From: Amoebophrya sp. A120
Lineage: Eukaryota > Protista > Dinoflagellata
Length of the DNA: 64,000 bases
Direction of reading: 5' to 3'
Assembly (NCBI GenBank): GCA_905178155.1
Contig: CAJINV010000002.1
Coordinates: 7,737,650 to 7,801,649, forward strand
The stretch's first letter is position 1; the number at the start of each line of letters is the position of its first letter. Position numbers and translations under genes: made by a program. The notes under the pieces are model-generated. The model made no database searches and was not told where the DNA came from. It was given only the letters and a program-made list of their open reading frames with translations. This document shows, piece by piece, positions 20,690 to 44,119 of the stretch.

Positions 20690-21960
20690 TCGCAGCGAGC
20701 CTTGCTAGTCCGTCACCGAAGTTTGCGGCACGCAACAAGCCCGCCGCCGGTACTAAGGCGTAGACTGACAACGAAAAGGAGAGGCAACGAACCAACCGCG
20801 CACCCCCGGCCCTCGCCCCAGCCAAGAAAAAAGCGGTCGGCGCGGGGCTGCCTGGGGCCGATTTGTGGCGGGCCGGCGTTGCTTTGGCTGGCCGAGCCCA
20901 TTCATTGGGGCGCCGGGCCGCCAAGGTAAGAAGGCGGGCCGGCGCGCGGGGCGGGCAGGAAGACCGGCCGGCCTGGGTCCCTCCACCCAGAGTAAAGGGG
21001 GCCCTGCCTGGAAACCGCGCGCGGGCCCACCTGGGAAACAGGGCGCCGGGCGAGTCTCGCCGGCCGCGCGCGCCACCGGCCCCACCCTTTCGGCAACAAG
21101 GCTCCCGGGGCCTTGGCGCCGCGATTGCGGGGAGAACGAAGGCAGGAGGGCGCACCCGCAGAAACAAATGGCGGCGCTGATGCGAGAGACGGGCCCCTCC
21201 GGTCCTCATATCTCTGCCGCTTCCGCCGGCGCGCCTCGGTCGTGTTCGAGCGGCAACGCGATGGCCACCTCCGGCCCCGCTTCATCCTCGCGCGCCCTTC
21301 TGTCCGAGGGGCCGCCGAGGTAGGGCCGCCTGCGGCCTTCCAAGGGGGCCAGGACCTGTAGGAGCGGTAGGGCGCCGCCGGCCCCGGGGCGGTGCGCCGC
21401 GCGGGGCCGGCCCGGCCCGGCCCATCGCAGAAGGGCGCGCGCGCCGCGCGCAACCAATGTTCCAGCCCTACGGCGCCAGCAGGGGGGCCGGGCCCGCGGG
21501 CCCGCCCACACTTGCCAGCAGCAGCGGAGCGGGGGGATTCGGGCGGGCCCGCCTGGAGCTCTCGGGCTGGGCCCTGCCCGATTTCTTGTTTCCTGCCCTC
21601 CCCATCCCCGCTAGAGTCGCAAATGCCCCGCGCGCCCTGCCCCCTCGCTTTCCTGGAAGCTCCCGCGGTCTTGTTTGATCTGCATCGGCAACCAGATCAC
21701 GCGCCGCATATCAGGCGGGCACTCCGCTCCCGGCGTCCGCGCCGGGCCGCTCTATCGCGTCGGCTAAATAGATCACCAAGAGGGGGGGCAGGCGTGGGCC
21801 CGGCCCCGGCCTCGCCAACACCACGGCGCCGCGCGCGTCCAGGATCTGGCCCGGCTCAAAATCTGGCAGGCGAACTCGAGGCGCGCCCCCCTTGGCTACA
21901 GGCTCTGCATCGGGGCGGGGTGCGAAGCGTTTTCGAACCACCATCGACGTCCGCCATCCA
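20690..21960. other. Very GC-rich island, probably a degenerate repeat or mobile-element remnant
   Basis: Individual 60-nt lines counted at about 77-93% GC against roughly 50% in the flanks. Many overlapping Arg/Gly/Pro/Ala ORFs, none with recognisable motifs. Confidence 0.5.
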
Positions 21961-22662
21961 CTACCCTGCTGCGCTCCTTCGTGCAGACCCGACTACCTCC
22001 AGACAAGTCTGGAAGGCAAACTGAGCCTGGGGGAACGGGAAGCAAGAGCAACGCATAACAATAAGCGAATAAGTTTAAGTACTATTCTCATTGCGCATGA
22101 AGGCTGTGGAGAACACAATTCGCCAGAAAATCGTTCGGAAGTGCCCTTCTAAAACTGCTTGTTCACCAGTTTTTTTACAGCAATGGCACAGACATTGAAG
22201 ACTCGGTCGATGGTACTCACTTAGCTAATCGGTGGCAACGGTAGACGCTGCTCGTCTGCACTGTCGTTTCATTGCTATGTGTCGCATCACGGCAGAAAAT
22301 TGTTGATCACGAGGTGGACCTCAACCACATCGTCGGTCATCATCTTCACCAAGGCGACGGCGGTCGTTTGATAAATGAAATATGCGGGTGCGAAAAAGTC
22401 TGGTCATTAAATTATTCATGAAGTGGAGATGATCTAGATGATGCTACTCCTCCTAGCCAAAAAAACAACGTATGTTACTGGCGCTCAATGTGTCGCGGTA
22501 GATGTAGATGTCAATAAAAATGATAGAGGTAGGGCGACGGGCCCAGCGCACGTGTGGAAAGTAAAAAACGGAACATGTGGGAAAAAACAGAAATTTTTCT
22601 ACCATCTTGCTCAATGTCAATGAACAATAGCGCTAACTTGGCGCAGCTTCCTCGTCGATCTA

Positions 22663-27300: not shown

Positions 27301-28589
27301 GTCGGGTGTTGATCGCCGGTTTGATCAAACATCTTCATCATGGTCATCGATGTTTCCATGATCACACCTGATTTGATGCGCCAGCTATGCCGAATTCGTG
27401 TGATTGTTATTGGTGGTACTTACAAGCGGTCGACTAGAAGATATTCACACGTACTACCTTTTTAGTAAATCTAATACGTCAACTCGACTAGGACATCAGG
27501 CTGCTAAACACAAATAGAAATAATTCCGGATACGGATTTGAAACAATAAATCATGAGCCTAGTACTGATATATCTAGCGGAAGTCCGGAAAAAAGGCTCG
27601 CGTGCGCAAGCTCCTAGCAACCCACACCAGCGGTCGCAACTGGAGGAATAGGAAACAAAACCCTAGCGATATCCATGATCAAGACAACAACAATAACAAT
27701 ATATCCAGTTTTTATTGCAGCTTTCTTGAGCGCCTTGCTTCGACAGGATCCCAGCAAAATTTTTCATCCCTGTGTGTGCGGCTTCGGCCTATTGGAAAAA
27801 TATCTTTTCTTCGCGATCCGGCTACTGTGAGATCTACTTGAGAGGTCAGGTTCTTCTTGCGCCGTGAACGCAGGTACAGATGCAGAGACGGATCGCTATC
27901 TTTCGCATCATCACGGAAAGATACATGGCAGAAACTTGAAGTCTCATAGCGGAAGGCAACAGACTGACCGCGTGGATTTCGCAACCAACAACAACAGATA
28001 ACTTTTGGCTGGTTCCAGAGAGACGCTACAGGGGCAGAGGCAAGGATTACAGGCTCTGGCTTTTTGGTGGCCCGGACCAATTATACGCGGTGATGAGCAG
28101 CCTAAACCCATACAAGCAGGTGGCTTGCCAAGTGATTCTTTTCCTTCAAGTTCAAGATTTCCATTTCGCACGCACTGTTCGTTTTGCCTCGAGTTCTGAA
28201 ACATTTGTCAAGGTGTGTAAATTGTCAAGAAACAAGTCTGTGCTTGCTGGGCGCGTCAAAAACTTTGTCAGCATTTCTTCGAAACCTTTAAGCGCGTTTG
28301 TTAAGACCCACTTCGCTTTGTGAAATTGCGAGGTAAATCTGTAGGGTCCACCAGAAGTTTAGTACCCGGCTGTTGTAATGTAACTCCAGTAGGAGCTAGT
28401 ACTAGAGCGACGTTCGATTTTACAAGTGAGAGGGCAATTCTCGCCGTCCTCTTTTTGGTTACGACGAAGTACGGTACCTAGCAATAACAAAAACGTCAAG
28501 AACTTTTTGTTTTTCACAACTTTGGAGTCGGTGACTGGAGGTTAACACACAGACACACGACCATTCCAGAACTGTATACTCGACAAGAA

Positions 28590-28909
28590 TGAAACAGAAA
28601 ACCGACAGGGTTCTGTGACTGTGGATCGTGCAACGCATGAGAACACCAGGAAGATCACCAGCGACAGACTGCTACGCAGTCTCAGGAAAAAAGGTTCATC
28701 GTACTAGCAGAAAAGGCAACAAGCACAAGGCTTGAGCCAAACACAGGCAGCATTAGTTCATGTAGTCTCATCCGGATGAATAGGTATTGTATTAGCTAGA
28801 CCCAGTTAACGAGTACGACCCTAGGTAGACGAGTTAACTATCTCCTTAGCTTTCTTACGAGCACAAGCAACCACACGTCACGAACCGAAATTCCCTTGTG
28901 GAGTTAACA
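28590..28909 (-). repeat. 3' LTR
   Basis: Identical to 43739-44058 except g28903 versus a44052. Confidence 0.97.
28731..28741 (-). promoter_or_regulatory. DinoSL 3' core TTTGGCTCAAG in the 3' LTR
   Basis: Plus-strand cttgagccaaa equals the last 11 nt of the dinoflagellate spliced leader DCCGTAGCCATTTTGGCTCAAG, in element sense. Confidence 0.75.
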
Positions 28910-28910
28910 G

Positions 28911-28917
28911 TTCCCCC
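28911..28917 (-). promoter_or_regulatory. Short polypurine tract (GGGGGAA)
   Basis: Lies 1 nt upstream of the 3' LTR on the element sense strand. Confidence 0.6.
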
Positions 28918-29048
28918 GGGTTGTGGAATTGCTTGTGCTCCGCCTTTGAGACTACCATTGTTTTTCTAATCTCAGTTATCTATATTTCAGTATTGTGTCG
29001 TTTATCCTTCCTTGTTTTTCTCCTCCGCTCGTCTCCGTATCGTTCTGT

Positions 29049-29732
29049 TCACTCGTCCAGTATGACGAAGGGCTCGCTCTCCATGTCAACTGCACCCGCC
29101 GCGTATTGTGCGCACGCGGGGTAGTCCTGCATGTTCTTCAGCTCACGGCGATCCTTTGCGGTGGCGTAGTAGACGAAGAAGCGCTGTAACTCAAGCAGCG
29201 TCAACTCTTCTTCGCACAGCTGCATCCTGATGTAGTTGCGCCCGCCGCTCGGACACAAGAGCTGCATGTGGTGGACCACTTTGGCACACTGCTTGGCGAA
29301 ACCGGCGTAGCTGTGCGACGGATCCAACGTGGCGTCCGCGATCAGTGCCCACAGCTCCGGCTGATCCATCCGCAACAGCCCACAGTATCCCAGCATCGTG
29401 CCGCTCAGCTCTTCGTACGCCGCGCTCTTTTGGTAGCGTCCCATCGGCAAGAAGATCTTCATTTGATACTGGTACTCCAATTCAAACGTCGGGATGCAGA
29501 GCAGGCGGGGCAGGTACCGGAACGCGAGACTGTTGCACACCGAGAACCAGGTCCGGGGAATCACCAAAGGAACGGGACCGGAAACACGTTTCCCGTCGAT
29601 GCAGCTCAACACCAGATACAGCTTCTTTCGCCGGCGCTCCATAAGCTTCTTGCAGTCCGACGCGTGGGTGTGGGGAAAGAGACCACACTTCGGGTACTCC
29701 TTCTTCTCGGTAAAAGGATTCCGTCCTGCCAT
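29049..29732 (-). CDS. Accessory ORF-C (227 aa) between pol and the 3' LTR, unknown function
   Basis: ATG at 29732 (MAGRNPFTEKKEYPKC...). Strong GC3 bias. Globular composition with no TM segment or signal peptide. Confidence 0.75.
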   Translation of the reverse strand: MAGRNPFTEKKEYPKCGLFPHTHASDCKKLMERRRKKLYLVLSCIDGKRVSGPVPLVIPRTWFSVCNSLAFRYLPRLLCIPTFELEYQYQMKIFLPMGRYQKSAAYEELSGTMLGYCGLLRMDQPELWALIADATLDPSHSYAGFAKQCAKVVHHMQLLCPSGGRNYIRMQLCEEELTLLELQRFFVYYATAKDRRELKNMQDYPACAQYAAGAVDMESEPFVILDE

Positions 29733-30284
29733 CGTGCTTTCTGTTCGTACTTCCAAATCCAAGTTCGTTCGCGTACTGTCTTCTTGGCTTTACACGGCGG
29801 TGCTACTACACCTCACTTTACAAAAACCAAAAAAGAAATCAGAAAATAGGAAAATTACTGTGGCTGTCTAGGTTTAACTTTTTCTAACGCGTCTGTCGGT
29901 AGAGCTTTTGGTTGTGACTTACAAAATTTTAGTTCGTTCTTACGGTGGGTCGTACTTCTCTCTGAAACATCATCCGCTGTGAAAATGGATTGATGAGTAA
30001 AATGATGTCAAAACAGGCCAGAAAGCTTTCGATGATTGAATTCAAAAACACAAAAATTTCAAGACTCATTACTCTCTTTTGTTGTGTCGTTTTCCTGTAA
30101 ATCTACCGGATCTGGGTCGTTTATTTCGTGCGAACTTTTTGTTTGATTTGTAGTGGTGAATCGTACAAGATTGCTGATGAAGATCTCTTTTTCTTTTAGA
30201 CTTTTCTTTGTTGAGGTTATTCATTTTACACTGTCATTCTCTGAAACTTAAACTAAAATCATACATAGAAAACAAGAAAACGGA

Positions 30285-33200
30285 TCAATTGCTGCTGTTT
30301 CCCGCGGCTGCGGCAGTGGCGTCACCTTCGGTTCCGTCCCACTGCGCGTCTTCTTTGTCGAGCTTCCTCAGCACGCCTACCGCGTCTCCTCGGCGGTCGC
30401 CCGGTCCCGACGGCCACAGCCAATGACCGTTCATAAGCTGTCGCAGTCGGCCTCGTTTTTCATTGACCGACGTCCACCATTTGGTTAAAACGTCGGTCAA
30501 ATTGCTGGGATCCGAAATGTGCAGCAGGTTCCTCCGCGTCTTCCTGTGGAGTTGTCTTGCACGGGCTATTGCGCGGAAAACACAATTGTCCGGCTCCATC
30601 GTCGTGGACCTTGACAGCAACCTTGCTATGACGGAACTGTTGTCAATAAAATCGTGTTGTTCAAAACCTTCTGCAGCAGCGATGATTTCCTCGGTTAAAA
30701 TCCCGTACGGAGTCGGCATTTCCATCTCGGCCAACCGCAACTTGACGCTCTCTGCCTGCTGCGTTCCGCGGTCGTAGCCGAGAGCTTCCGCACCGTAACT
30801 GCCGTCTACCACCGTGTCGTGTACGTGGCAATCCCAGTGCAGAATGGAGGAGCGAAGTGGTCGTGTTTTCTGGATCGAGTCCGCCAACTCCTTCTTGTCG
30901 GTCACCACGAGCAGAAAAGCTGTCATCGGCCGTAACTGCAGTTCGCGCGCTTCTGCGAGACGGGGATCATCCGCGGCCATGAACTCCGCCATGCCGCGGT
31001 CGAGCTTCTCTTTTTCTTCTCCCTTCTGCTTTTTAACCGGCTTGCTTTGAAAACTTCCGTCTGTTATCAACAAAAAGCACGGCTCGGAAAAGTCAAGCCA
31101 CAACCGCAGAAACGTCTGGTCCTGCTCTCTCACCCGCTTCATATCTTGCACCAAGGTGTTTACTCTGCACGCATTTGCGACAGTGCGCTGCTCATCGGCA
31201 CCAGAGGCGAGGGCGCGTTGGGTGTAGATGAACTCACAAAGTCGTTCCGCGACGTACCCCGTACTTCCTCTGACGCCGCGAAGCCGGGTTACTTCTGTTG
31301 GTGTTAGTTTTGCTGCTGGATCTGGTCTTCCACCGTTTATTGTGGCGTCCGTCTCGAATTCGCTTAATTCATCGATTTTTCGGTGCATCGAGAGGTCGAG
31401 AGCTTGGTGTCCGTCCACGGTGACAATCCTGATGCTTTTGCCGGTAAAGTTCGTCCATTCCGACGTTATTTCCTCGAAGCAACTGTCTTCAAGTGAAGAA
31501 AACGCTTTCTTCATTCTGGACTTGATCACTTCGAGGAGGCCCGGGACCGAACCGTCTGCCAGCACCAAGAAATCGCCCACGTGTGAGCCAAAAACTGCAA
31601 CTACGCGGCCTTCTATCCGCAATCTGTAGATGCAGGGTGCCATCGCGGATGGTGGCATGCCCTGGGCCACGAATTCTTCTCGCGACTTGCGATAAAAATA
31701 ATAGGCTGCGTCGAGCAAGCCATATTGTGGCACCCGGATCCGCAAACGCGAATCCGGGTTCAGGTCCAGGTTGTGCTTCTTGTTCAGGATCGCCAATGCG
31801 CCGTCCAAAGCTTCGGCGAAGCGCCCTTGCACGCGCGGAAAACGCATCTCCGGCATCTCCTCGTCCGTGTACGTCCTGCTCTCCTGGAAGGCCCGTGGTA
31901 CATCAAATACCATTCCTACGGTGCGCTTCCACTTTCCAGCGATGACGGACATGAGGCGCAAGTCCAACTCTGAAAGAGTCGGACTTGCATTCTCGGCCGC
32001 CTCGTCCGGCCTCTCTTGTAAGTGTCCCCCCGGAGCCCACCGGCATTTCAATTGCCAGTAGAACTCCGAGAGAAACTTCGCATCGAGAATAAATCGCGAT
32101 GTGAGCAAGAGTTTTTGCTTGCCAGACAGGTTTTCCCCGCTGTTCAGCGCCTTCACCACGTTCGGAAGCTCCTTGTCTTTCTTTGCCACCATCTGACCTT
32201 CTATTTCCTTGGTCAGCGCCATCTTGGTTTCCACCACTCGTAGCAACTCGCTCAGCACCGAGTAGGGCGTCATGTCGGCCATCTTCCTCGCGCTGCGGAG
32301 CCGTTTCCGCTGTGCCGCTGTCATGCCGGCATGGTGACTACTGATCACACTGTGTTCCGCGCGACCGTCTTCCGCGCCAAACGAATCAGCAAATTCGAAG
32401 CGGATGGCACCAGCGGTTTGTTCACGCATTTCTTGCGAGAAAAAGTAGCCGCCCTCGGCGGTGTAGCCTTCGTTGAGGTAGTACTTTACGCACGTACGGT
32501 TCTTCGAGGCGGCGTTGTTCGGGTTTAGTCGTTCCGCGTGGTGCTTTTCCCACACCAAGGTCATACCCTCGATCAGATCGCAGGGCGCCGCCCATCCTTC
32601 CGGCACCGGCTCGTCGTTCAGCATGTTCTTGACTGTGATCCATTCGCTGGCTTCCACGTTAATGCACTTGGCATTGTAACCCTTCACTTTCCGTACTACT
32701 TCTCGCAGTGCCATGCTGGGTTTGTTGACTGGCAGACCGAGCACTTTCGCCTTCCGTGCGTCCCACTTTATGTGTTTCAAAATGTCGAGTCCGCCAAACT
32801 TCTTCTCGCCCTCCTGCTGTGCTTCCAGTTTCAGGTTGTAGGATTGCACTTCCATTATGTCCATCACTGCGTTGAAGTCCTCGAGCGACAGATCGACCAC
32901 GTTGATCTCCGGTGCGCCTGCCAGCTCGTCAAGCTCGTCTTCGGGAATGAAGTTCTCCGCTTCTACTTGCTCGTCGCCGCCTTCCTCGGCGCCGTCATCG
33001 ACGTCTGCGGCGAGACCATCAGCGGGCGCACCTACTTCTTGTTCCTCCTCGGAGTCTGATGCTACTTTTTCGTCCTCTTCTTCACTACCGAGCAAGTCCT
33101 CCTCGGGCAGTCCGTCGTCTTCTTTTGCTGCAGGCTTTGGGGACGCGTTTTGTAGATCAAACTTTACAGTTTTCTTCACCTTGTCTTGCACCAGACGCTC

Positions 33201-36200
33201 CTCCTGCTGAGTCGTTTTCTCATCTTTGTTCTCGTACAGGAATTCTGGACGCGTCTTCTTCATGTCGCTGCGGAGCTTCTTCTCCGGCAGCCACATCCCC
33301 GCTGTGCACAGCTTGTCGTCGCTTTCGTCGCCGCAGAAGACATGTGGACACAGATTTACGCAACGGCATACTTCTCCGGGGAAGTTAGCCTCTACGTACC
33401 GCATTTCGGCGCAGTCGATGCATGGTATTAACCGGCTCTCATTTATTTTCGCACCGCGAAAGTCGTCTTTTGCGACGAGTCCGAAGTTCTCTTCGCGGTC
33501 CACCCGGTCGAAGTATCCCTTGTGCCGGATTTGTGCGAGGATCTGCGGGAGCTTGGGAATGTCCGACATAAACATCTCGACCGTGTCCGGGAGCGCCAAT
33601 GCAAGCTCGTGGTCGATCACCCTCTGCACTTTCTTCTTTGGGATCTTCTGGATAGCAGAGGTGGCGGAGAGTGGCTTCACTCCCCACACGATGCTTCCTT
33701 CCTCGGCCTGCTCGAGATGTCCTGGCACCCACTTCTCTCCCTTATTCTTCCACTCCACGAGGTCGCCGAGTACTGCTTCCGGGCCCCTGCCGTCTTCCGT
33801 GAGGCGCCGGAATAGGAGGCTCAATTCCAGGTGTAGCTCGGGGTCGAGAAACGATTCCAGAACTGCGATCCGCGCGGCGATTCGGTTTTCCGCCCGCTGG
33901 ATCTTACTTATCCGCGCGTCCTCCACGCTCCAGAAGCGGATAGCGGAATCCTCCGGTAGGTCGCCTTTCTGTGCCAACCGCCACTCCTCTCCTTTCTCTA
34001 GGTATGACGTCATCATTTTCCGCTCGCGGCGCGCATGCGCGAGGAGCCGGAGCAGCACTGACAGTGGCAGATCCCGCAGTAACGGGTGCCTCATTGCGGC
34101 GTGAAGGTTGGTCTTCAGATGCAGATGAGAAACTTCAACATCTGCCATTGCTGTCGCGGAATTCCCGGAAACTATTCTCACCCGAATTCCCGCCGCCAGC
34201 AGCAGCGTGGCCAAACCCTCGCTGATATTTTCGGATCCCGGATCCATGATAAGGATCCTTCCGATGTTGTCGAGATTTTCGCTTACAAACTTGCAAACCG
34301 CGTCGGCAGTGGGCTGACCGGAACTCAGCTTCTTATCGCTCTGGTCCGCGTCGTTCAGGCCTAACAGTTGGTCGTTTTCATTTTTGGTTTTATTGCCGAT
34401 GGCCAGTGGTTTCCCGTCTCCGTCCACCGGCGCGGGGTCGTCCGCGTAGTTCGCGCACTCAGCGAGTGTGATCCATTTCGGTCCGATGAAGTCCAGCCAG
34501 ATGTCGCCGCTGATCTTGCGCAGCAACTGCACTACCGTATTTGGCTGGATGAGCATGTCGCCAGACACAAAGGCTGTGTCTAACATACTCACGGCCGACA
34601 GGTCCACGGTGGACCAAGAGCCTATGGCTCGCTCCATCGGCCATGTCGTGTATCTCACGTTCGAGAAACTTTTCCTCATTGCCGCGTCGATCGCGGTCCT
34701 CAAATCCCGGAAGGGGATGCTGCGGAACTTCCCCTTCGCGAGCTTCGTCATGAGCTTGGCGTCAAGCTTACCTGCATGACGGTGCGTCATCGCTCTGAGG
34801 TACGCGTACACCTCGGCCTGGCGCCTCGTCAGGTTTCGGCGCGGGTCGAAAGGAACGGTCACGCTTTTGCCGTCGTGCGCGTCTTGGGTCGGTGATACCA
34901 ACCCGTATCCGAACCTTGTTACCCGGCCGTCCGATGTCGGCCGCTCACCATTCGCTGCGAGCAACGAAACCAGACTCATGTGTGCAGCTCGTTTCTCCGA
35001 TCTCAGTCGTAATTGATCGCCAACCAGTTCGGCAACGGCGACGGCCCCTTGCTTTCCGTTTCCGGTGAAAAGCGCGCAGCCAGCCCGGTACTTCATCAGG
35101 AAACGCTTACTCCGTTCGAACAGATCCTGATATTCCGGCATCTCCTTGATACGATCCTGCGCCCTCTTGGACAGGCCGGCTTCGCCTTCTTGGAACACCG
35201 ACTGAATGCTCTTCGGCACGGGGAACTGCAGCGTCCGCCCGCGTAGCTGCAAAGCGACATGCTTTCCTGAGTCCGCGGAGGCAACGCGCCGCCCGCTCAG
35301 AGCTGTAATCGATTCTGTGGCCCGCTTCCACTGCTTGATTTTGCTATTATTCGTGTACCTGGAGATCACAGGTATTCCGAAGCCACTGCGGTCGTGCACG
35401 GGCTCGCTTCCGCGCACCTGTTGGTCGAAGAAATACACCGCGACGATATTCCGGTGTGTTTCTCCTCGAAGTGGTAATTCTGCGTTGATTAAATTCGCGT
35501 TTTGGTTAGAAAAATTGTTGAGACTTTGTAGTTTGTTTCTGACTTCGTCGAGATCGTGTATTACTCTGGTTCGCGCCCGTATGTCGGCGCCCGTTGGTTT
35601 GGGTGCGTGGGTTGCACCGACCAAGATTCTTGCGCATGCGTACATTTTTGCTACATCAATTGCCATTCCGTTGTCGTTCGGCTTTTGATTCGCAGTAGAA
35701 GTTCCCGTTGGTAGCTCTCGGCTCCCGACTGGTGCTGCTGACGAAGAAGATGAAGACGAGGCAGGATTGTTCTGTGCCTCCAGCAGCGTGGGAAAGATTC
35801 TTGTATGGTCTGGATGTGGGAAAGATATCTGATTCGTGCTAGTTTTTCTGTTCTTCGCGGCCCGCATCACGCTTGCGGTAGTCGCGAATCCGGCTTCGAT
35901 CTGCTTTCGTACTGCTCGCAGAAAATCAGGAGTAAGTTCTTCAAAAATATCCATCATGCACTGGTTGTCGACCGGTTCCGTTTCCCACGCGCCGCAACGG
36001 CCGTGTCCGGTATCCGGGTCGATGCCGATTTTGAACTGGCGCATGAACTCCAATCCGATCAGGTTCGTTGCAGGTTGTGGCCACTCCCGGTCGTCGACCA
36101 CGATACAGTGCACCAGACCGGCTGGCACCTTGCAACCGTGCGGCAACGCCACAATTACTTCTGCAATACCAAGGACTTTAGTTGCGCCTCCCGCGGTAGA

Positions 36201-36662
36201 CGCCTCCAGCGGGACGTTGGTAAATTCTAATTTGATTCCGTGCTGCAGACAAAAACGGTGGCGCTCCTCCAAAGCCACCACTCCCATAAACAATAATCGG
36301 CTAAACCCGCTGTCGATCAGAAATTTTGCGATATCCTTCATGCTGGCGCTCATCACTTTCAGGTCTTTCAAGTCAAGTAGAATGCTCTGTATCACGGCTT
36401 TCAGGTGGACAGCCGCCTTGTTGACCGGGACTATTTTCTCCGGCTGGTTCACATATTTTTCTCGTTCAAATTGTTCTGTTTGCGGAAGAGGGTTCGGATT
36501 CTTCCTGCAGAGGTAGTACTCCTTCGGCCTGCTAATTTTCTTTTTGTCGATCAAGTTCTTCTTCACGATGCTGCTCACGAAAAGTTCGTTGTTAGTCGGT
36601 GGCTTTTCGTTTTGGTTTCCGGCCGCGTAGTCCGACTTGTCTACGGGCCGTCCCGGAAATCC
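30285..36662 (-). CDS. pol: Pol polyprotein (protease-integrase-RT-RNase H), in the -1 frame relative to gag
   Basis: PR: FLIDSGFS and NLIGLEF. IN: MLDTAF...IMDPGSEN-(D35E)-DVEVSH. RT: FDVPRAF, QYGLLDAA, SHVGDFL. RH: ITDGSF, GAEALG, IDNSSV, LTDVLTK. The frame is open from the slippery site at 36662. Confidence 0.95.
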   Translation of the reverse strand, partial: GFPGRPVDKSDYAAGNQNEKPPTNNELFVSSIVKKNLIDKKKISRPKEYYLCRKNPNPLPQTEQFEREKYVNQPEKIVPVNKAAVHLKAVIQSILLDLKDLKVMSASMKDIAKFLIDSGFSRLLFMGVVALEERHRFCLQHGIKLEFTNVPLEASTAGGATKVLGIAEVIVALPHGCKVPAGLVHCIVVDDREWPQPATNLIGLEFMRQFKIGIDPDTGHGRCGAWETEPVDNQCMMDIFEELTPDFLRAVRKQIEAGFATTASVMRAAKNRKTSTNQISFPHPDHTRIFPTLLEAQNNPASSSSSSSAAPVGSRELPTGTSTANQKPNDNGMAIDVAKMYACARILVGATHAPKPTGADIRARTRVIHDLDEVRNKLQSLNNFSNQNANLINAELPLRGETHRNIVAVYFFDQQVRGSEPVHDRSGFGIPVISRYTNNSKIKQWKRATESITALSGRRVASADSGKHVALQLRGRTLQFPVPKSIQSVFQEGEAGLSKRAQDRIKEMPEYQDLFERSKRFLMKYRAGCALFTGNGKQGAVAVAELVGDQLRLRSEKRAAHMSLVSLLAANGERPTSDGRVTRFGYGLVSPTQDAHDGKSVTVPFDPRRNLTRRQAEVYAYLRAMTHRHAGKLDAKLMTKLAKGKFRSIPFRDLRTAIDAAMRKSFSNVRYTTWPMERAIGSWSTVDLSAVSMLDTAFVSGDMLIQPNTVVQLLRKISGDIWLDFIGPKWITLAECANYADDPAPVDGDGKPLAIGNKTKNENDQLLGLNDADQSDKKLSSGQPTADAVCKFVSENLDNIGRILIMDPGSENISEGLATLLLAAGIRVRIVSGNSATAMADVEVSHLHLKTNLHAAMRHPLLRDLPLSVLLRLLAHARRERKMMTSYLEKGEEWRLAQKGDLPEDSAIRFWSVEDARISKIQRAENRIAARIAVLESFLDPELHLELSLLFRRLTEDGRGPEAVLGDLVEWKNKGEKWVPGHLEQAEEGSIVWGVKPLSATSAIQKIPKKKVQRVIDHELALALPDTVEMFMSDIPKLPQILAQIRHKGYFDRVDREENFGLVAKDDFRGAKINESRLIPCIDCAEMRYVEANFPGEVCRCVNLCPHVFCGDESDDKLCTAGMWLPEKKLRSDMKKTRPEFLYENKDEKTTQQEERLVQDKVKKTVKFDLQNASPKPAAKEDDGLPEEDLLGSEEEDEKVASDSEEEQEVGAPADGLAADVDDGAEEGGDEQVEAENFIPEDELDELAGAPEINVVDLSLEDFNAVMDIMEVQSYNLKLEAQQEGEKKFGGLDILKHIKWDARKAKVLGLPVNKPSMALREVVRKVKGYNAKCINVEASEWITVKNMLNDEPVPEGWAAPCDLIEGMTLVWEKHHAERLNPNNAASKNRTCVKYYLNEGYTAEGGYFFSQEMREQTAGAIRFEFADSFGAEDGRAEHSVISSHHAGMTAAQRKRLRSARKMADMTPYSVLSELLRVVETKMALTKEIEGQMVAKKDKELPNVVKALNSGENLSGKQKLLLTSRFILDAKFLSEFYWQLKCRWAPGGHLQERPDEAAENASPTLSELDLRLMSVIAGKWKRTVGMVFDVPRAFQESRTYTDEEMPEMRFPRVQGRFAEALDGALAILNKKHNLDLNPDSRLRIRVPQYGLLDAAYYFYRKSREEFVAQGMPPSAMAPCIYRLRIEGRVVAVFGSHVGDFLVLADGSVPGLLEVIKSRMKKAFSSLEDSCFEEITSEWTNFTGKSIRIVTVDGHQALDLSMHRKIDELSEFETDATINGGRPDPAAKLTPTEVTRLRGVRGSTGYVAERLCEFIYTQRALASGADEQRTVANACRVNTLVQDMKRVREQDQTFLRLWLDFSEPCFLLITDGSFQSKPVKKQKGEEKEKLDRGMAEFMAADDPRLAEARELQLRPMTAFLLVVTDKKELADSIQKTRPLRSSILHWDCHVHDTVVDGSYGAEALGYDRGTQQAESVKLRLAEMEMPTPYGILTEEIIAAAEGFEQHDFIDNSSVIARLLSRSTTMEPDNCVFRAIARARQLHRKTRRNLLHISDPSNLTDVLTKWWTSVNEKRGRLRQLMNGHWLWPSGPGDRRGDAVGVLRKLDKEDAQWDGTEGDATAAAAGNSSN
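36594..36662 (-). promoter_or_regulatory. Predicted -1 programmed ribosomal frameshift signal (G GAU UUC plus H-type pseudoknot)
   Basis: Heptamer at 36662-36656 in gag phase, then a 5-nt spacer. Stem 1 is CGGCCCGUAG/CUACG(C)GGCCG. Loop AGUCGG pairs with CCGACU (36599-36594). Confidence 0.8.
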
Positions 36663-39600
36663 CGGTCGAGGTACAAACCATCCTCGTCGTAGTCGTACTC
36701 CTCTTCTTCGACTGTGTCGTCCCCGCCGGCCGGGACCGTACCAGCCGTCGCGGCGGCGCTCGCCGCGTCGCTAACCTGAGCCGGATTCACGCTCAGGCTC
36801 GGTTGCTGCGTGGTGGTACTGGTCGTCGGTTCCGCAACGTACTCCCCGAGCCAAAACTCTTCGTCCATATCGCCCATTTCGATCCCCACCGTGTGCTGGA
36901 CTAGGCCGTCGGTATCCACAAATTGGATACTCGCGAAAAATTTTTTATTTCCACGTCGCTTGCCACCGCCCTTCTTACCCTTCTTGCCCCCCTTTCGGGC
37001 GTTCCGCTTGAACTTGCGAAAGAACTGGGCGGCCTTGATGCAGAGCGAGTACACGGGGCAGTTGTCACGGTCGTGGGACGGGCTTTTGCAGGTTGTACAG
37101 GTTCGCGCGCTGTTGATTCCCGGTTTATTAAAATTACATTCCGCCTTTTTGTGTCCCACCTTTCCGCAAGACCAACAAACAATGTTGCCCTTTGCGGGTT
37201 GTATTTTATCGCCGAATTTGGCGAACGCCGCCGCCATCACCTGCGGCTGGTGGACCTCTTCGCACATGATAACCTCCTCGGCGGTTTCGCGCCCAGCGCT
37301 GCAACCGCAGCCGCTCATTCCGAGGTGGTTGATGTGGAAGGAGAAAGCGTTGGCCGCTTTTGATTTCGACTTGTAATTGATAATGGCGGAACTGGTCCGG
37401 ATGTTCCGGTCGAGACTGACGTAAGCCATGATCTCCTTGAAGTACGGCCACGCACGCGTCAAGCGCATCCGTTTCTTCTTCTTCATCTTGCTGGTGGAGA
37501 ACATCATGACCTCGCGCAGGAACGCGTCGTCGATGGGAATGCGATCGCGAAATTCCGCGAGCAGCCGCAACTGGTCTACCTCGCTCTTCGGATTGATCGT
37601 AATCCCCATCGCAAGCGCCGCGCGCCGGAACTTGGCCAACTCCAGCCACATGTTGGCATTTTTCTTGTTCCAATCGCCTTCTTGCACGGACCAATTCTTC
37701 AGACGGTCGTTGATGTCGGATGCCATTTGGCCGTAGAGCTCGGTCAAGGAGGTGAAGTAGTTGAGGACGGTGCACGAGTTCAATTTGTCCCGGTCGATGT
37801 AGCCGAGCGCGAGGATGTCAGTTTTCTGATCCTCGGTGTGCGCTTCCATCCAGTGCTTCCGCACGAGGACGGTCTCTGCGCTCAGCGCCACCGCCCGGTC
37901 GGTGTCAATGCATCCCTTTAGGTGCATTTCTAACTCCATTTTCCAGCTCGCGAGCTTCATCGAGGAGCTGAATTTTGGTGGACCAGCGGCAACATACTGT
38001 CGGAAGTCGATTTTCGTCTTCTGTGCCGATGTCAAGGTCTTGCCCTCCGCGATGTGCGTCGACTCGAGCGGAACGTCGAAATTACCGATGGTACCGACGA
38101 GAATGCCATCCGCATTCATCACGAGCCCGATCTTCCCTTCTTCGGGGGTCGTGTTGGCCGACGGCCGGGCGGCATCCAGGTTCAGCCGCTTGACCTCCAC
38201 GCGCTCCTCCTTCAGGATGCCCTTGCCCTTTGCCTTGTTCCCATAACCGTCACGACCATCATCACCGTCGTCTCCACCGTGACCGCCGCCTTGACTGTTG
38301 TCGTTGTTGCCCCCGTTGCCGTTTCCACCGCCGGCACCACTACTACCGCCGCCTACCATGTTGGGCTGCTGAGTGTAGTGTTTCTCGTAATCTTTGGAAG
38401 ACCAGTTCTTCCGCTTCTTGATGTCATCGTCGTCGTCAACCGCGGATCCATTGTCAGAAGAAGTTTCGGATTCCGAAGACGAGGATGACGAACTACCGCC
38501 ATCGTCCCCACCGTCGCCTCCGGCGGCCGCCTTCTTCAACGCGCGCTTTCGCTTCTTCTTTTCGGCGCCGCTCGTCCTCTTACTCTTCTTTGTCGTCGTC
38601 GAAAAGGCGTCTTCTTCGGCCTCGGCCTGACCAGCTTCGGCCGCAGCGAATGCTGCCGCCGAGTATCCGGCCGCGATGGTAGCACGCTCCACTTCCTTCG
38701 GGTGCAAACCTGGCAAGAACTCGCTTGCCGCATAGTCCGGGTCTTCTTCGATGTAGTACTTCTTCTCGTTGCGGATTTTGCTACCGAGAGAACTGGCGAC
38801 GGACGCAGCGCGACTCCGCGTCGTCACGTCTTCCGCAACTTCGCCGCTCAGAATGTTGCATTCACGGGCTGTTGCCCCCGTCGATCCGATGTTGAAATGT
38901 TGCACCGTCGACTGCTGTTGCAAAGACGCAGTTGCAGCTGCAGCTCGTGCCTTCTCCTTTTCCAATGCCGCAAGTGCTTGATCGGTGGCATTCGTCGCAT
39001 TCTGCAGGAGGTGCACGTATCGGCCTTCCATTTCCTGCATCTGCTGTTGCATGTAGGTCTGCATCTGCGCCATATTCGCCTGGGCTTGCCCTTGCAACCC
39101 TGCCACGCTTGCGGACAGGTTGTCGGCTTGGTTCTGCAGTCCCTGCATGTTGTTGACGATTTGGTTTGTATTGTTGTTCTGGGTTGTCTTGATCTCGTCG
39201 ACTACCTGCTTGGCCGCGGTCAGCTCCGTCACCACTTTGTTATCGAGGTTGGCGATGTTGTCCTGCGCGGCCGCCACCTGCGCGGTCGTGTTGCTTGCCA
39301 GCCCGTCGAGCTCGGTTTTCGCAGCGCGCAGTTCCTTTTCATGGTCGTTACGCAGTTCCGACACTGCGTTTTGCGCGTCCATGGACGTGGCCGCCGCGCC
39401 AACCGCTGCTGTTGCTGCTCCGACGGCGGCCTGTTCGGCATCACGGGCATGTCCCATCCAGTTCTGTACGCCCTTGCGCATTCGGCCCTTGAAATCGGTC
39501 CATTCCTCGTACCAGCGTGCCCACTGCTCCTCGGACCAATGGCCGTAATTTGCGTTGTTGTATCCGTGCTCGGGTCCGTATGTGTCTGGACCATACGGCC

Positions 39601-39823
39601 CTTTCTTGCCCCCGTAGTTGTTCATCCATTTTCCTTTGTTTTTATTTCCATATCCGTTGTCGTTGGTACCCACTTGGTAGTTGTTGTAGTTGTAATTTTG
39701 CAGCTGGTAGTTTCCGTTCCGGCTGCTGCGCCGCGACGTCATCGATTCGTCGGACGTCGGGTTCCCATCCTGCAGCGCACGCTGTCCAGCGGCCGCTCCC
39801 TTGCCTTGCCCTGGACCTCCCAT
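36641..39823 (-). CDS. gag: Gag (1060 aa) with an N/Y/G-rich N-terminus, coiled coil and two CCHC zinc knuckles
   Basis: CWSCGKVGHKKAEC and CTTCKSPSHDRDNC followed by a basic patch. Located upstream of pol. Confidence 0.9.
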   Translation of the reverse strand: MGGPGQGKGAAAGQRALQDGNPTSDESMTSRRSSRNGNYQLQNYNYNNYQVGTNDNGYGNKNKGKWMNNYGGKKGPYGPDTYGPEHGYNNANYGHWSEEQWARWYEEWTDFKGRMRKGVQNWMGHARDAEQAAVGAATAAVGAAATSMDAQNAVSELRNDHEKELRAAKTELDGLASNTTAQVAAAQDNIANLDNKVVTELTAAKQVVDEIKTTQNNNTNQIVNNMQGLQNQADNLSASVAGLQGQAQANMAQMQTYMQQQMQEMEGRYVHLLQNATNATDQALAALEKEKARAAAATASLQQQSTVQHFNIGSTGATARECNILSGEVAEDVTTRSRAASVASSLGSKIRNEKKYYIEEDPDYAASEFLPGLHPKEVERATIAAGYSAAAFAAAEAGQAEAEEDAFSTTTKKSKRTSGAEKKKRKRALKKAAAGGDGGDDGGSSSSSSSESETSSDNGSAVDDDDDIKKRKNWSSKDYEKHYTQQPNMVGGGSSGAGGGNGNGGNNDNSQGGGHGGDDGDDGRDGYGNKAKGKGILKEERVEVKRLNLDAARPSANTTPEEGKIGLVMNADGILVGTIGNFDVPLESTHIAEGKTLTSAQKTKIDFRQYVAAGPPKFSSSMKLASWKMELEMHLKGCIDTDRAVALSAETVLVRKHWMEAHTEDQKTDILALGYIDRDKLNSCTVLNYFTSLTELYGQMASDINDRLKNWSVQEGDWNKKNANMWLELAKFRRAALAMGITINPKSEVDQLRLLAEFRDRIPIDDAFLREVMMFSTSKMKKKKRMRLTRAWPYFKEIMAYVSLDRNIRTSSAIINYKSKSKAANAFSFHINHLGMSGCGCSAGRETAEEVIMCEEVHQPQVMAAAFAKFGDKIQPAKGNIVCWSCGKVGHKKAECNFNKPGINSARTCTTCKSPSHDRDNCPVYSLCIKAAQFFRKFKRNARKGGKKGKKGGGKRRGNKKFFASIQFVDTDGLVQHTVGIEMGDMDEEFWLGEYVAEPTTSTTTQQPSLSVNPAQVSDAASAAATAGTVPAGGDDTVEEEEYDYDEDGLYLDRDFRDGP

Positions 39824-40489
39824 TTTGCGCTTCTACGGCTCGTTACACCAAAAGAGGTAGAAGGCGAAGATGATGAGAAGAAAACCGCCGAACACACAAA
39901 GTGCGACGATCTCGATTATTTTCCAGAAGAAGATGCTGACGGCGGTCTGCAGGCAGCCGCACATACGGGCTCCGTTCGTTCACTTCTTACGGGACTTGGT
40001 TAGTTGGGGATTAGTTTTGTTTTTCCAGTGCGTCGACTAGTCGAGCGCACCTAGCTGGGGAGACTTGCGCACTACACCTTAGTGCTGCTAAATCCTGGTT
40101 TTGATGGGCAAAGTCTTAGATTGTCGAACTCCGTGATTCCGGTCGGTTAGGCCTTTTTCGTTTGCGGGTGATACTGCAGATTGGCGGTTCTGATTTTGCT
40201 TCTCGGTTTCGACATAAACAAACGACAGACGAATTTTCGATACTGCGATTTGCGATTTGCGTTACGGCAATTTTGCGATCGAGAAACAAAAGACACCGAG
40301 TCGATACTTCGTTCTTTCGGGCGCAGCCGCCGCACTCCTATTTCTGCTTATTCTTCCAAGAAACAAAAAGGTGCACAGATTCGAAAGCTGAATTCCGGCT
40401 CCAAGAAATCAGAAAAGAGGAAAATCGAAACGGGCTTCATCAAACTTTCGTCACAAAAAACTTGCTGGTGCCGGTGCTCCTGTCCCCGG

Positions 40490-41317
40490 CTACTCCGCTT
40501 TCTTCCGGCACGGGTTCTGGCTGTACCGCCACCACGCCGAGTTGAAAGATTCGCTTGAAGATTCCGATGGTGTTGGTGGTCGGTCTTTTCTTACACGTAG
40601 CTCGTCGATTTGTTCCTGCTGGAGAATCTTCCAACGCCGACTCTCCGTGCAGTTTACGTCGCGATTAAGCGCATGGATCAAATCGAGGTCCTCGTCCAGT
40701 TCCTTACCGAATTCTATCACCGACATGAACAGGTCACAGAGCGGGTCGGTAATCTTGAGCCGCATCTTCTCTGGCGCCATGAGCAGTTTCCCGGTCCTGG
40801 TCGCCAGCAGCTTGACGCTCACGTCGCTGAGTTTCTTCTTCTCGAAATCGGGTAGTTTCGCCGTGGGAACGGTGTAGGCAATATCCTTCAGGATGGCTTC
40901 GTAGCCGAGCTCTTGGTTGATTTGCTCGCGCTGGGCGAGTAAGTTCTCGATCTGCTGGTAGTGTCCGAGATGCCATGGCACGGCATACCCGGTAAGGAAA
41001 TCTTTCAAAAATTGGGTAGTTGTTTCGGAATACTGATTTTCTGCGCTGGATTCGAAGATAAAATTGCTGCCGGAGCTGTTGCTGCTGCTCCGTCCGAGTT
41101 CACTGCTGTTTGCGTTCTGCGAAAGAAATGCTGGAAGAGGTAGTTCTTTTGATTTGTTGTCAAAGGTTGGAGAAGGCTTGTAGCTCGGCGAAATTACATT
41201 TTTGCTGTTTAAAAGTTGTTTGTCGCTCGACTCAGCTCTGGGCGTCCGCTGTGGTCCAGAACCGCAGAGTTTCCCGGGAGCGCTCCCGCGTCGGGCTTGG
41301 CTCGAACTCGGGTTCAT
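40490..41317 (-). CDS. Accessory ORF-B upstream of gag, unknown function (helical core ~41020-40570)
   Basis: First ATG at 41317. GC3-biased core FLKDFLTGYAVPWHLGHYQQIENLL... The start is uncertain. Confidence 0.6.
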   Translation of the reverse strand: MNPSSSQARRGSAPGKLCGSGPQRTPRAESSDKQLLNSKNVISPSYKPSPTFDNKSKELPLPAFLSQNANSSELGRSSSNSSGSNFIFESSAENQYSETTTQFLKDFLTGYAVPWHLGHYQQIENLLAQREQINQELGYEAILKDIAYTVPTAKLPDFEKKKLSDVSVKLLATRTGKLLMAPEKMRLKITDPLCDLFMSVIEFGKELDEDLDLIHALNRDVNCTESRRWKILQQEQIDELRVRKDRPPTPSESSSESFNSAWWRYSQNPCRKKAE

Positions 41318-41725
41318 TGTTCGCTCCGGGACACACCGCCGCACGGTGTCCGTGTGCACCGCAAATCCAGCAGCGCAGGCCGCTACGTTGGCCGCTCGTC
41401 TGGTTTCCGATGAAGTCAACGGGATCGGGCCCCAATGGGCCCGGAAATAAAAAAATCATGAATCCCAAAAGAAAAACGAAAAAAAAATTTTTGCACTGCC
41501 GCCCTATTGTGCCAAACCACTCCGCCGGGGCTCGCTCGATAGGAAATCTGTAGGCCCTAAAATAACGCCGGGGCTTTGTCAACAGGCTGCGGACCTGTGG
41601 GCTCCGGGGTTTTCGAAGAACTGCGCCACATGAAATCGAGCACGCAACTTTTGTTCGGGCAAACACAACGTCACCGAAAAAAAAGAAAAACACCGAATAA
41701 ATTTGCGCCAAAAAGTTGCTTTCTT

Positions 41726-41886
41726 TGCGACATGAGTGCGACACGGGTGCGACACCGGTGCGACACGGGTGCGACATTTTTCGGGTTCTTCCTGAAATCC
41801 CTAAGAAAAAAAAAACCACGGCCGAAAGCCGATTTTTTTTAATTATTTCAGATTTTTTGTCGCAACAAAGGCGATTTTTTGTCGCA
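41726..41886. repeat. Array of TGCGACA motifs: 5 direct copies at 11-bp period plus 2 inverted copies
   Basis: Direct copies start at 41726, 41737, 41748, 41759 and 41770. TGTCGCA at 41858 and 41880, each preceded by GATTTTT. Confidence 0.85.
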
Positions 41887-42106
41887 GAATTAATTGGCCA
41901 CTCGCCCGACCAAAACTTTCCCACCCAGCATCCCTCTCCCATCCCGAAGCACACACCGGCAACATGGGCTCCCTCTGCCGGCCCCACTCCAATCCCTTGC
42001 GCCCACGCCTGCTTTTCCCGCCCAACCCACAAACCCAAGACACACAACCAGAAAAAGAAAACGCACCAGCGAGCGGCTGCAAGAACTGCAAAAACCCTGC
42101 GAAAAC

Positions 42107-42991
42107 TTAAAAGCGCGAAAATTTTCCGGCTTTTGTGATTTTTTTGCTTTTCTGACTACTGGGGGCCGATCCCGTTGAATGAAGGGGTCTCCGTTCAGGC
42201 CGGCGTGGTTCCACACTCCGTCCTGCGTGTACTGCGTACCCGAGTACGCACTCGTTCCGTTGATTGTTCGCCGGCGTATAGCCGGTTACCTGCCAGAACA
42301 GGACCAGGCTGTTCAGACTCAACACCGGATTGAACGATGAATTCGCCACGCGTGCCTGCTGTTCCTGGTTCCAGTAGAACAAGAAGTCCTTCTCCGCGCT
42401 CACGGTTGTCCCGAACGGCTTCGGGTGTCCGAGAAACAACGGACCCGGGAAGAGGCGACTCAGGCTGAAGACACCAGCCGGAGGCTGCCCGTTGTCGTAC
42501 GGAAACTGTGCTTCAAGTGCCTCGCGATCGCCGTAGTGCGTGGTCGGGTTTGGTTCCCGACTGTCGTACAGCACCAGTTTTCCTTCCGTGAGAGCCGGAC
42601 CTTCTTCTCCGAAGCTGTCCTGCAGGTCCAACTCTAATCCTGGCGCTTCCAACAGCGAGGGCACGTACCGTCCGAGATGGAAGGGCACCTTCACGATCTG
42701 GTAGACGAAAGTGCCGGGCAGCGGGCTGCAGATGCAGAGCGTTTTTCCGCCCCACAAGTGGTGGCTTACCCGCTGCAGGTCGGATTCCGGTATCCACGTC
42801 TTTAACCGGAAATGCACCGCGCGCGCGTTCGGTGGTGGTTTGTCAAAGTGGCCGCTGTAGCGCCACACGAGGCACCGGTCGCCGAGCTGACAGACGAGAA
42901 CGGGTTTTCCGTCGTTTGCGTCCAAAGCAGCGATCAGCTCGTTGAGATTTGCTTCGTAGGTTCGGAGTCGCTTTGGTGCGATCAGGCTCAT
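42107..42991 (-). CDS. Accessory ORF-A upstream of gag (~294 aa), unknown function
   Basis: ATG at 42991 (MSLIAPKRLRTYEANLNE...) marks the onset of GC3-biased, globular sequence within the 466-codon frame. Confidence 0.65.
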   Translation of the reverse strand: MSLIAPKRLRTYEANLNELIAALDANDGKPVLVCQLGDRCLVWRYSGHFDKPPPNARAVHFRLKTWIPESDLQRVSHHLWGGKTLCICSPLPGTFVYQIVKVPFHLGRYVPSLLEAPGLELDLQDSFGEEGPALTEGKLVLYDSREPNPTTHYGDREALEAQFPYDNGQPPAGVFSLSRLFPGPLFLGHPKPFGTTVSAEKDFLFYWNQEQQARVANSSFNPVLSLNSLVLFWQVTGYTPANNQRNECVLGYAVHAGRSVEPRRPERRPLHSTGSAPSSQKSKKITKAGKFSRF

Positions 42992-43726
42992 TATTGCTAA
43001 CTTAAATTTTGTCGATATTCCGCTTCCGTTTGGCCAAATCCGATAGACTATTCCGAGATGTTTGTTTTTGTTATTCCTTTTTGTCGAACTGCTGCGTCGT
43101 TCTCGATAAACTTTTCCGCTTTGCGATTGTTTATCCATGAAAAATCCGTTAAAGATTTTTCTCTCAAGCGATTGCGATTTGAAGATAAAATTGCACGAAT
43201 TCCGTTTTGCGAAATAGACGATCTTTCGATGGATTTGTTCACGAAAAGAAACACTTCCGGGCACTTGACGATGCAGTCGAGGAAGTGGTGCTCGTTTACG
43301 AAACCGGGGTCCAACTGCCCCGGACGAATCTGGTTGGATGACGCAACTTGTCATGGTGGAAGAGGAAGCCGTGGAACAAATCTCCTCTTCCCGCGGTTCG
43401 ACGTAACTTGTCGGAATCGAGGTGACAAAACTTGTCATGCTGGTGGCGTCAACTTGCCGGAATGTTGGCGTACACTTGCCGATGGGATGGCGTAACTTGC
43501 CGATCACACATTCATCGCTGTGTTTTGAAGCTCTTCACTGGCTGAAAAAGACCTCACTTGTCGTGTTCGCCGCGCCGTGTACTGGCTCCGCGGCGGGTAG
43601 TCAAACATGTGGTCGCCGTGGAACGGAAGCATATGTTTTGACACAATACTGACATAGCTAGTTTACCCTTCTTGTAGTCGCTAGTGACTCCCGTCACTGG
43701 TGATCAAATGGTTGCATAACCTCTGT

Positions 43727-43737
43727 CTCCGCTACCA
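43727..43737 (-). promoter_or_regulatory. Primer-binding site TGGTAGCGGAG (initiator tRNA-Met type)
   Basis: Lies 1 nt inside the 5' LTR boundary. Complementary to a tRNA 3' end CUCCGCUACCA (U72, A73, CCA), as in eukaryotic iMet tRNAs. Confidence 0.85.
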
Positions 43738-43738
43738 C

Positions 43739-44058
43739 TGAAACAGAAAACCGACAGGGTTCTGTGACTGTGGATCGTGCAACGCATGAGAACACCAGGA
43801 AGATCACCAGCGACAGACTGCTACGCAGTCTCAGGAAAAAAGGTTCATCGTACTAGCAGAAAAGGCAACAAGCACAAGGCTTGAGCCAAACACAGGCAGC
43901 ATTAGTTCATGTAGTCTCATCCGGATGAATAGGTATTGTATTAGCTAGACCCAGTTAACGAGTACGACCCTAGGTAGACGAGTTAACTATCTCCTTAGCT
44001 TTCTTACGAGCACAAGCAACCACACGTCACGAACCGAAATTCCCTTGTGGAATTAACA
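43739..44058 (-). repeat. 5' LTR (contains the DinoSL core at 43880-43890)
   Basis: 319/320 identical to the 3' LTR and adjacent to the PBS. Confidence 0.97.
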
Positions 44059-44119
44059 AGAACATACTTTGTCTTTCAGAGAAAGTAGGATCCGATAATA
44101 AAACAGCCGTCTTCACGAT

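Follow-up and report, generated by a model that had tools for sequence, protein, structure and literature searches.

Accessory open reading frames (ORFs) in long terminal repeat (LTR) retroelements have been reported mostly for gypsy elements and retroviruses, the copia exception being an env-like ORF after pol. A 64,000-nt stretch of the genome of the dinoflagellate Amoebophrya sp. A120 (contig CAJINV010000002.1; hereafter the window) holds an LTR retrotransposon of copia order in which two ORFs, ORF-A and ORF-B, stand before gag and a third, ORF-C, after pol. Do such genes belong to a lineage, or were they picked up by accident in one copy? We conclude that this is a highly divergent Ty1/copia-type element, and that its lineage quite probably has accessory genes of its own around gag-pol. 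The preliminary description of the locus had proposed an undescribed complex lineage of copia order, a proposal supported by two observations: a sister copy matches blocks in the accessory regions, and a distant relative, locus L001, also carries two ORFs upstream of gag. Since the sister matches reach all three accessory ORFs, the two observations together make the multi-gene layout likely a lineage trait rather than an accident. Two genes before gag, in copia relatives down to 32% identity in the reverse transcriptase (RT), broaden the known genome layouts of the Pseudoviridae.

Structure and affiliation of the element

All ORFs of the element lie on the minus strand, in the order primer-binding site (PBS), ORF-A, ORF-B, gag, pol (in the −1 frame), ORF-C and polypurine tract (PPT), between two 320-nt LTRs that have TG...CA ends and differ from each other at one position (Table 1). 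The order first claimed for the element is thus borne out, as are the claimed 1-in-320 LTR difference and the intact target-site duplication (TSD), with AGAA on both sides. The PBS, G-TGGTAGCGGAGA, directly follows the 5′ LTR on the minus strand; a tRNA gene search of the window found none. The 15.5 kb originally given as the size holds for the span between the LTR ends, but 769 nt of it are due to a secondary, nested insertion, and subtracting these leaves a native length of 14,700 nt. Likewise gag does lie behind two ORFs, but natively at ~3.15 kb from the 5′ LTR rather than ~3.9 kb.

Table 1. Features of the element, with positions counted from the first letter of the window
Feature	Position	Strand	Remarks
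5′ LTR	43739-44058	minus	320 nt; TG...CA
PBS	43725-43737	minus	TGGTAGCGGAGAC; 1 nt past 5′ LTR
ORF-A, 5′ part	42991-42179	minus	starts at ATG 42991; codon signal z 5.8
Nested non-autonomous terminal inverted repeat (TIR) element, like a miniature inverted-repeat transposable element (MITE) or introner	41416-42178		763 nt; flanked by 6-nt direct repeat ATGAAG
Detached 3′ end of ORF-A, CCHC zinc knuckle	41414-41232	minus	Pfam zf-CCHC_6 E 0.004, zf-CCHC E 0.019, below cut-off
ORF-B	41317-40490	minus	275 aa, predicted start; codon signal z 4.6; overlaps knuckle frame by 86 nt
gag	39823-36641	minus	1060 aa; low-complexity N-terminal half, two C-terminal CCHC knuckles
Predicted −1 frameshift signal	36620-36662	minus	G GAT TTC then stem-loop, just before gag stop
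pol	36770-30285	minus	protease (DSG), integrase D-D-E, four-Cys module, RT (HVGD), RNase H (D-E-D-D)
ORF-C	29732-29049	minus	227 aa; codon signal z 6.9; Cys/His cluster and basic stretch near N-terminus
PPT	28910-28920	minus	purine-rich; adjoins 3′ LTR
3′ LTR	28590-28909	minus	320 nt
TSD AGAA	28586-28589 and second copy 44059-44062	plus	4 bp

The gag product was scored as a CCHC nucleocapsid, its Pfam zf-CCHC match falling below the cut-off (E 0.014), and it is 28% identical to the gag part of the relative P0004 across 334 aa. Gag overlaps pol in the −1 frame (36641-36770), where the stem-loop of the predicted frameshift signal has a fold z of −2.18 and was equalled in stability by 2 of 200 shuffles. 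The pol product is ~2,100 aa long, with motifs of the protease at 150, integrase at 728-877, RT at 1556-1730 and RNase H at 1901-2090, as well as a long stretch between protease and integrase without domain assignment. Single-sequence searches with pol returned no Pfam match and no PDB match; because pol escapes Pfam entirely, routine transposable-element annotation would overlook such elements. Its relatives, 27-51% identical to it in the RT-RNase H part, came from EukProt (six proteins), NCBI (one protein) and two loci. A motif table of nine pols, with gaps in its truncated or decayed rows and with domains assigned by motif, not by Pfam, shows copia order from the protease D(S/T)G through the integrase D-D-E to RT and RNase H; RWAPGGH is the diagnostic motif of the family. 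A family profile matched the RVT_2-bearing protein P0008 (E 5.9e-9 database-wide), aligning through RT motifs A-C. In a 10-row tree with one copia outgroup, from which no row was dropped, the group stood far from the outgroup on a very long branch.

The integrase core is followed in pol by a four-Cys module (33276-33458, minus strand) whose four Cys, Arg, Asp and Trp are invariant in nine of nine rows. Its spacing resembles that of CW zinc fingers, a likeness unconfirmed by Pfam zf-CW and PDB searches, which gave no match; the module could serve in chromatin targeting. An SH3-like stretch, seen by eye, precedes it.

With Ty1/copia elements (Pseudoviridae; nearest sampled member P0008) the window element shares the TG...CA LTRs, PBS, PPT, TSD, CCHC gag, the order protease-integrase-RT-RNase H and copia-like RT motifs. 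It differs from them in its 14.7-kb length, in its long pol without Pfam or PDB match, in RWAPGGH, the two ORFs before gag and the conserved four-Cys module, and in a TSD of 4 bp, where copia elements usually have 5 bp. Complex retroviruses offer a similar arrangement, in that walleye dermal sarcoma virus carries one ORF ahead of gag, behind the 5′ LTR, and others close to the 3′ LTR, so flanking its core genes likewise; the window element, however, has no env, is of copia order and shows no sequence relation that we could see.

Among described copia elements, Sireviruses (SIRE-1; PMC5408684, PMC9289625) combine copia order with an additional sense ORF that follows pol and precedes the 3′ LTR, as in the window. 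That ORF is env-like, whereas ORF-C has neither a transmembrane helix nor a homolog; Sireviruses live in plants, and the window element adds the upstream ORFs and a non-plant host. Giant Ty3/gypsy elements of the Ogre/Burro kind resemble it in having additional ORFs without known function in an internal region that exceeds 11 kb, and a Burro-like element of a planarian carries an accessory ORF upstream (PMC6431247). These are of gypsy order, though, and Ogre owes most of its size to LTRs of 1.9-6.5 kb (PMC6431247), where those of the window element measure 320 nt; nor does the integrase of the window element follow RT-RNase H as in Ogre/Tat, its motifs preceding RT. For Amoebophrya the literature reports LTR families without further specification, and for copia elements ORFs of env-like type; extra ORFs are reported mainly in gypsy elements (PMC7789003, PMC12130899, PMC2774666, PMC5408684, PMC9289625, PMC6431247), and one plant-wide screen detected no gain of domains among consensus sequences of copia elements (PMC9289625). 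Full-text literature searches, which did not reach Repbase-type libraries or subscription journals, turned up no description of the window lineage or of any copia element whose gag is preceded by ORFs.

Accessory genes in the window element and its relatives

For each of the three accessory regions, none of 500 shuffles gave an ORF of the observed length, and codon use is coding-like in the ORF-A core, ORF-B and ORF-C alike (z values in Table 1). By contig depth, a rough measure taken in runs X1 and X2 that may be the source of the assembly, the interior is single-copy at 85% likeness. At 80% likeness a sister appears in the same DNA run, at a depth of 42.9-44.7 against 45.3 for the single-copy flank. 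The sister is colinear with the window element and ~18-23% diverged in pol; its 3′ contig measures 3234 nt against 3186 in the window. Its two contig sets are inferred to be one element from their depth and from a joint that places another copy of the nested insert in the sister gag. The sister matches pol, gag and the PBS side, and also blocks in ORF-C (29294-29453, 29607-29669), in ORF-A (42179-42433, 42624-43055), in the knuckle (41222-41409) and, at ≥80%, only at the two ends of ORF-B (3′ end 40517-40585). The preliminary description had asked whether other copies lack 40100-43600 or 29000-30200; the sister has matching blocks in both.

The comparison also bears on how ORF-A is to be read. 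The first 149 codons of its long frame (43438-42992) give no codon signal (z −0.8), and the coding start is therefore put at ATG 42991. Near 42262-42266 the coding frame shifts (z 3.0 in the +1 frame beyond), and the stop of the long frame (42107) falls within the nested TIR element; read across the empty insertion site, the knuckle frame joins the +1 frame of ORF-A. In the sister, 1+3 nt are missing at 42262/42264 and 7 extra nt stand just upstream of ATG 42991, so that ORF-A is in frame with its knuckle there. (A 58/67-nt GT-AG intron at 42289 was considered as the cause of the frame change and is disfavoured, since the sister indels account for it; this comparison drew on 15 of its 26 joints and 12 of its 58 indels.) We accordingly read native ORF-A as a protein of ~328 aa ending in a CCHC knuckle, broken in this copy by a frameshift and the insert. 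Among the 17 listed substitutions in ORF-A, 10 fall at third positions (p 0.027) when the frame is changed at the indel, and these substitutions make nine synonymous and five non-synonymous codons, as against two and 14 in the opposite frames.

Homology searches with the accessory proteins came back blank: 0 matches for ORF-A among 1.84 billion representatives, 0 of 143 candidates at E 10 for ORF-C, and no Pfam match for the core frames (ORF-B was compared by Pfam and locally only). The ESM Atlas gave no usable match for ORF-C and, for ORF-A, only scores of 0.81 to unnamed clusters. Single-sequence AlphaFold models were poor (predicted local distance difference test, pLDDT, 35.7 and 32.3), and a fold match of ORF-A to the FtsH periplasmic domain (best Z 5.8) was rejected as within noise. 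All three accessory proteins lack a transmembrane helix, the 19-residue hydropathy maximum of ORF-C being 1.17, and none is therefore env-like.

L001 extends the comparison much further out (L002 is a partial contig). It is a complete 12.9-kb element, its RT 32% identical to that of the window, with 435-nt LTRs identical to each other, a 4-bp TSD (ATTC) and the same PBS after its LTR. Before gag it has two co-oriented, coding-like ORFs (165 and 386 aa, each length occurring in 0 of 500 shuffles). Its gag is 687 aa long, with a zf-CCHC match at E 1.6e-7; the gag-pol reading frame contains an in-frame TGA at 5792-5794, likely read through, and the RT motif HVDD is intact. The lineage thus joins gag to pol in more than one way, L001 having an in-frame TGA where the window element has a −1 overlap. 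Between pol and the 3′ LTR of L001 (12119-12646, minus strand) lies an antisense frame of 175 aa with a hydrophobic stretch and a weak codon signal.

Several observations weigh against accessory genes as a trait of the lineage or limit it. No homology was detectable between the L001 ORFs and ORF-A, -B or -C (z at most 1.7), and beyond pol L001 lacks any sense ORF reaching 80 aa. The core of ORF-B (40585-41222) is without sister match at 80%; of the 914 sister substitutions, 40 were listed, of which ORF-A accounts for 17 and neither ORF-B nor ORF-C for any; and the knuckle segment alone gives no codon signal (z 0.6). The tree, finally, had one copia sequence as its sole reference, with gypsy and Bel clades absent, and does not fix the place of the window element within the group. 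A single conserved accessory set is not supported, there being no detectable homology between the ORFs and no sense ORF after pol in L001. Because the two-ORF layout recurs without ORF homology, the layout is shared, and the accessory genes are either fast-evolving or replaced.

Might the extra ORFs instead be passengers, namely host genes or pieces of retroelements (a second gag, for example) that were captured once in the ancestor of both ~80% copies and have no role? The gag-like CCHC knuckle at the end of ORF-A would fit such an origin, as would the breakage of ORF-A here, the ORF-B core being less than 80% like the sister, and the lack of homology to the L001 ORFs. Yet the frames and the codon bias have persisted over ~20% divergence, with the visible change mostly synonymous, host homologs were not found for ORF-A or ORF-C, and the two-ORF layout behind the same PBS recurs at the distance of L001; we consider passengers unlikely. 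Still less likely are upstream ORFs that are split-off N-terminal modules of Gag rather than new accessory genes. The second ORF of L001, read directly, is Lys/Ser-rich with coiled-coil-like parts, resembling stretches in the gag of the window and of P0004, and the L001 gag is the shorter one (687 against 1060 aa); but the window gag N-terminus compared with this ORF reaches a shuffle z of only 0.5, and the window has a long gag and two upstream ORFs all the same. We thus retain accessory genes as a probable property of the lineage.

Age, damage and the nested insert

The element had been called very young, with five co-oriented ORFs. The single LTR mismatch agrees with youth, and orientation and coding signal hold for the ORFs, but these are not five intact ORFs of an active copy: ORF-A is broken, and RT motif C has lost an Asp, reading HVGD (codon 31577-31575) in place of HVDD. 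The first Asp of motif C is catalytic in RTs, so the window copy is likely unable to copy itself. Across the nine pols the motif is VDD in six, VDA in P0003, and HVGD in the window and in P0004, which lacks other conserved residues as well. An assembly error at this codon was rejected, as the DNA contigs agree with it at 0 differences (though the runs may be the assembly's own source). One mismatch in 320 nt of LTR predicts ~22 internal changes since insertion (95% range 0.6-122), which is enough to account for the damage. The window element is thus a recently inserted but damaged and likely disabled copy, the damage probably being post-insertion decay; against decay, HVGD may be a sub-lineage trait, since P0004 has it too.

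The nested TIR element inside ORF-A has TIRs of 19 nt that are 95% identical and no coding signal. It is multi-copy, with a contig depth of 241-294 against 19-25 elsewhere and several different flanks, and the sister skips exactly 769 nt at the site, that is, the insert and one repeat. None of the contigs from RNA or possible-RNA runs spans the site. In being non-coding, multi-copy, bounded by TIRs and direct repeats and placed within coding sequence, the insert appears from its sequence to resemble the MITE-like introners of Amoebophrya (PMC7789003, PMC12130899), although its direct repeat is 6 nt where those described in PMC7789003 have 3-5 nt. A contig at sister depth joins gag position 38122 to the insert end (41416), so that the gag of the sister likely houses a separate copy from this insert family.

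In contigs of X3 and X8 (28589-28718, 43895-44059), nearly identical copies of the LTR run into different flanking sequence, which means that at least one further LTR, solo or in an element, exists elsewhere. Scans with the locus had no match in viral contigs, and a first metagenome scan had none.

Proposed expression and genomic surroundings

With gag ~3 kb behind two ORFs, we propose that it is reached through subgenomic RNAs. By analogy with copia biology, a host tRNA bound at the PBS would prime reverse transcription of an LTR-driven RNA, integration would duplicate 4 bp of the target, and Pol would be produced by a −1 shift at G GAU UUC with the hairpin behind it. Gag-pol, ORF-B and ORF-C are predicted to be translated from shorter RNAs cut from the long transcript, which spliced-leader or cis splicing at the pyrimidine-rich spacers would generate, while unprocessed RNA would be packaged. 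The spacers are 550-750 nt long and lower in GC than the ORFs (0.37-0.48); two of them share a 23-nt pyrimidine motif (22 of 23 positions identical), and a pyrimidine tract with AG precedes gag.

The same spacers could instead hold an internal promoter for each ORF, in which case the lineage trait would stand and no splicing of one long RNA would be needed. Their length, low GC and shared motif would suit promoters, and PMC7789003 describes the gene blocks of Amoebophrya as regulated pre-transcriptionally, without polycistronic co-regulation; on the other hand, both the shared motif and the tract ahead of gag are pyrimidine runs followed by AG, like splice acceptors. Judging from these sequence features, we favour splicing over promoters and over internal initiation: expression of gag through shorter RNAs made from the LTR transcript by leader or cis splicing seems somewhat the better bet, internal promoters are possible but less probable, and internal initiation is improbable.

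The RNA data favour neither reading. Raw RNA runs X4 and X5 gave 0 and 1 reads on the element; possible-RNA contigs (X3, X7-X9) cover the flanks, the LTR and the insert and, in the interior, only one 215-nt piece of pol at depth 2.1. The full dinoflagellate leader sequence does not occur within the window, and Rfam gave one chance-level match only. Truncated leaders are reported on 18.5-37.8% of Amoebophrya transcripts, but the same paper finds no evidence of polycistronic co-regulation in Amoebophrya (Farhat 2021, PMC7789003), which speaks against our proposal. In its fullest version, which we offer as a conjecture more likely wrong than right, the genome of a complex copia lineage of dinoflagellate-like protists would be a retrovirus-style polycistron in which the spliced-leader machinery of the host resolves one LTR RNA into accessory and gag-pol mRNAs, ORF-A shielding the full-length RNA for packaging.

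The roles of ORF-A and ORF-C are speculative because homology and fold searches were blank. The knuckle of ORF-A suggests RNA binding, and the Cys/His cluster and basic run of ORF-C suggest a nuclear regulator; a knuckle-bearing ORF-A would then bind full-length RNA, protecting or delivering it, and ORF-C would act in the nucleus, an assignment we make from motifs and regard as doubtful. If true, the polycistron reading would place trans-splicing at the centre of how a retroelement is organised, and would demonstrate polycistron resolution directly in a group that so far lacks a demonstrated example; the element in any event is a small, defined locus for asking whether spliced-leader addition resolves polycistronic RNA in these protists.

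About 60 nt (44059-44120) separate the element from the stop codon of a host ORF that spans 2,800 codons without an intron, and both neighbouring host ORFs, neither with a Pfam match, are co-oriented with it. Gene-dense, co-oriented surroundings, the introner-like insert and homologs from eukaryotes only would all suit a host among the syndinian dinoflagellates, such as Amoebophrya. Beyond the 3′ LTR the flank (28075-28617) is covered by possible-RNA contigs in four runs, one of which enters the LTR; these may reflect LTR read-out toward the next host gene or an unannotated transcript. Elsewhere in the window, 6121-8206 holds coding-like sequence repeated in tandem, in units of 30-36 nt and in Cys-rich units of 255 nt, that may belong to a gene for a surface protein, and 21001-22000 forms a GC-rich island (0.73, against ~0.53 for the window).

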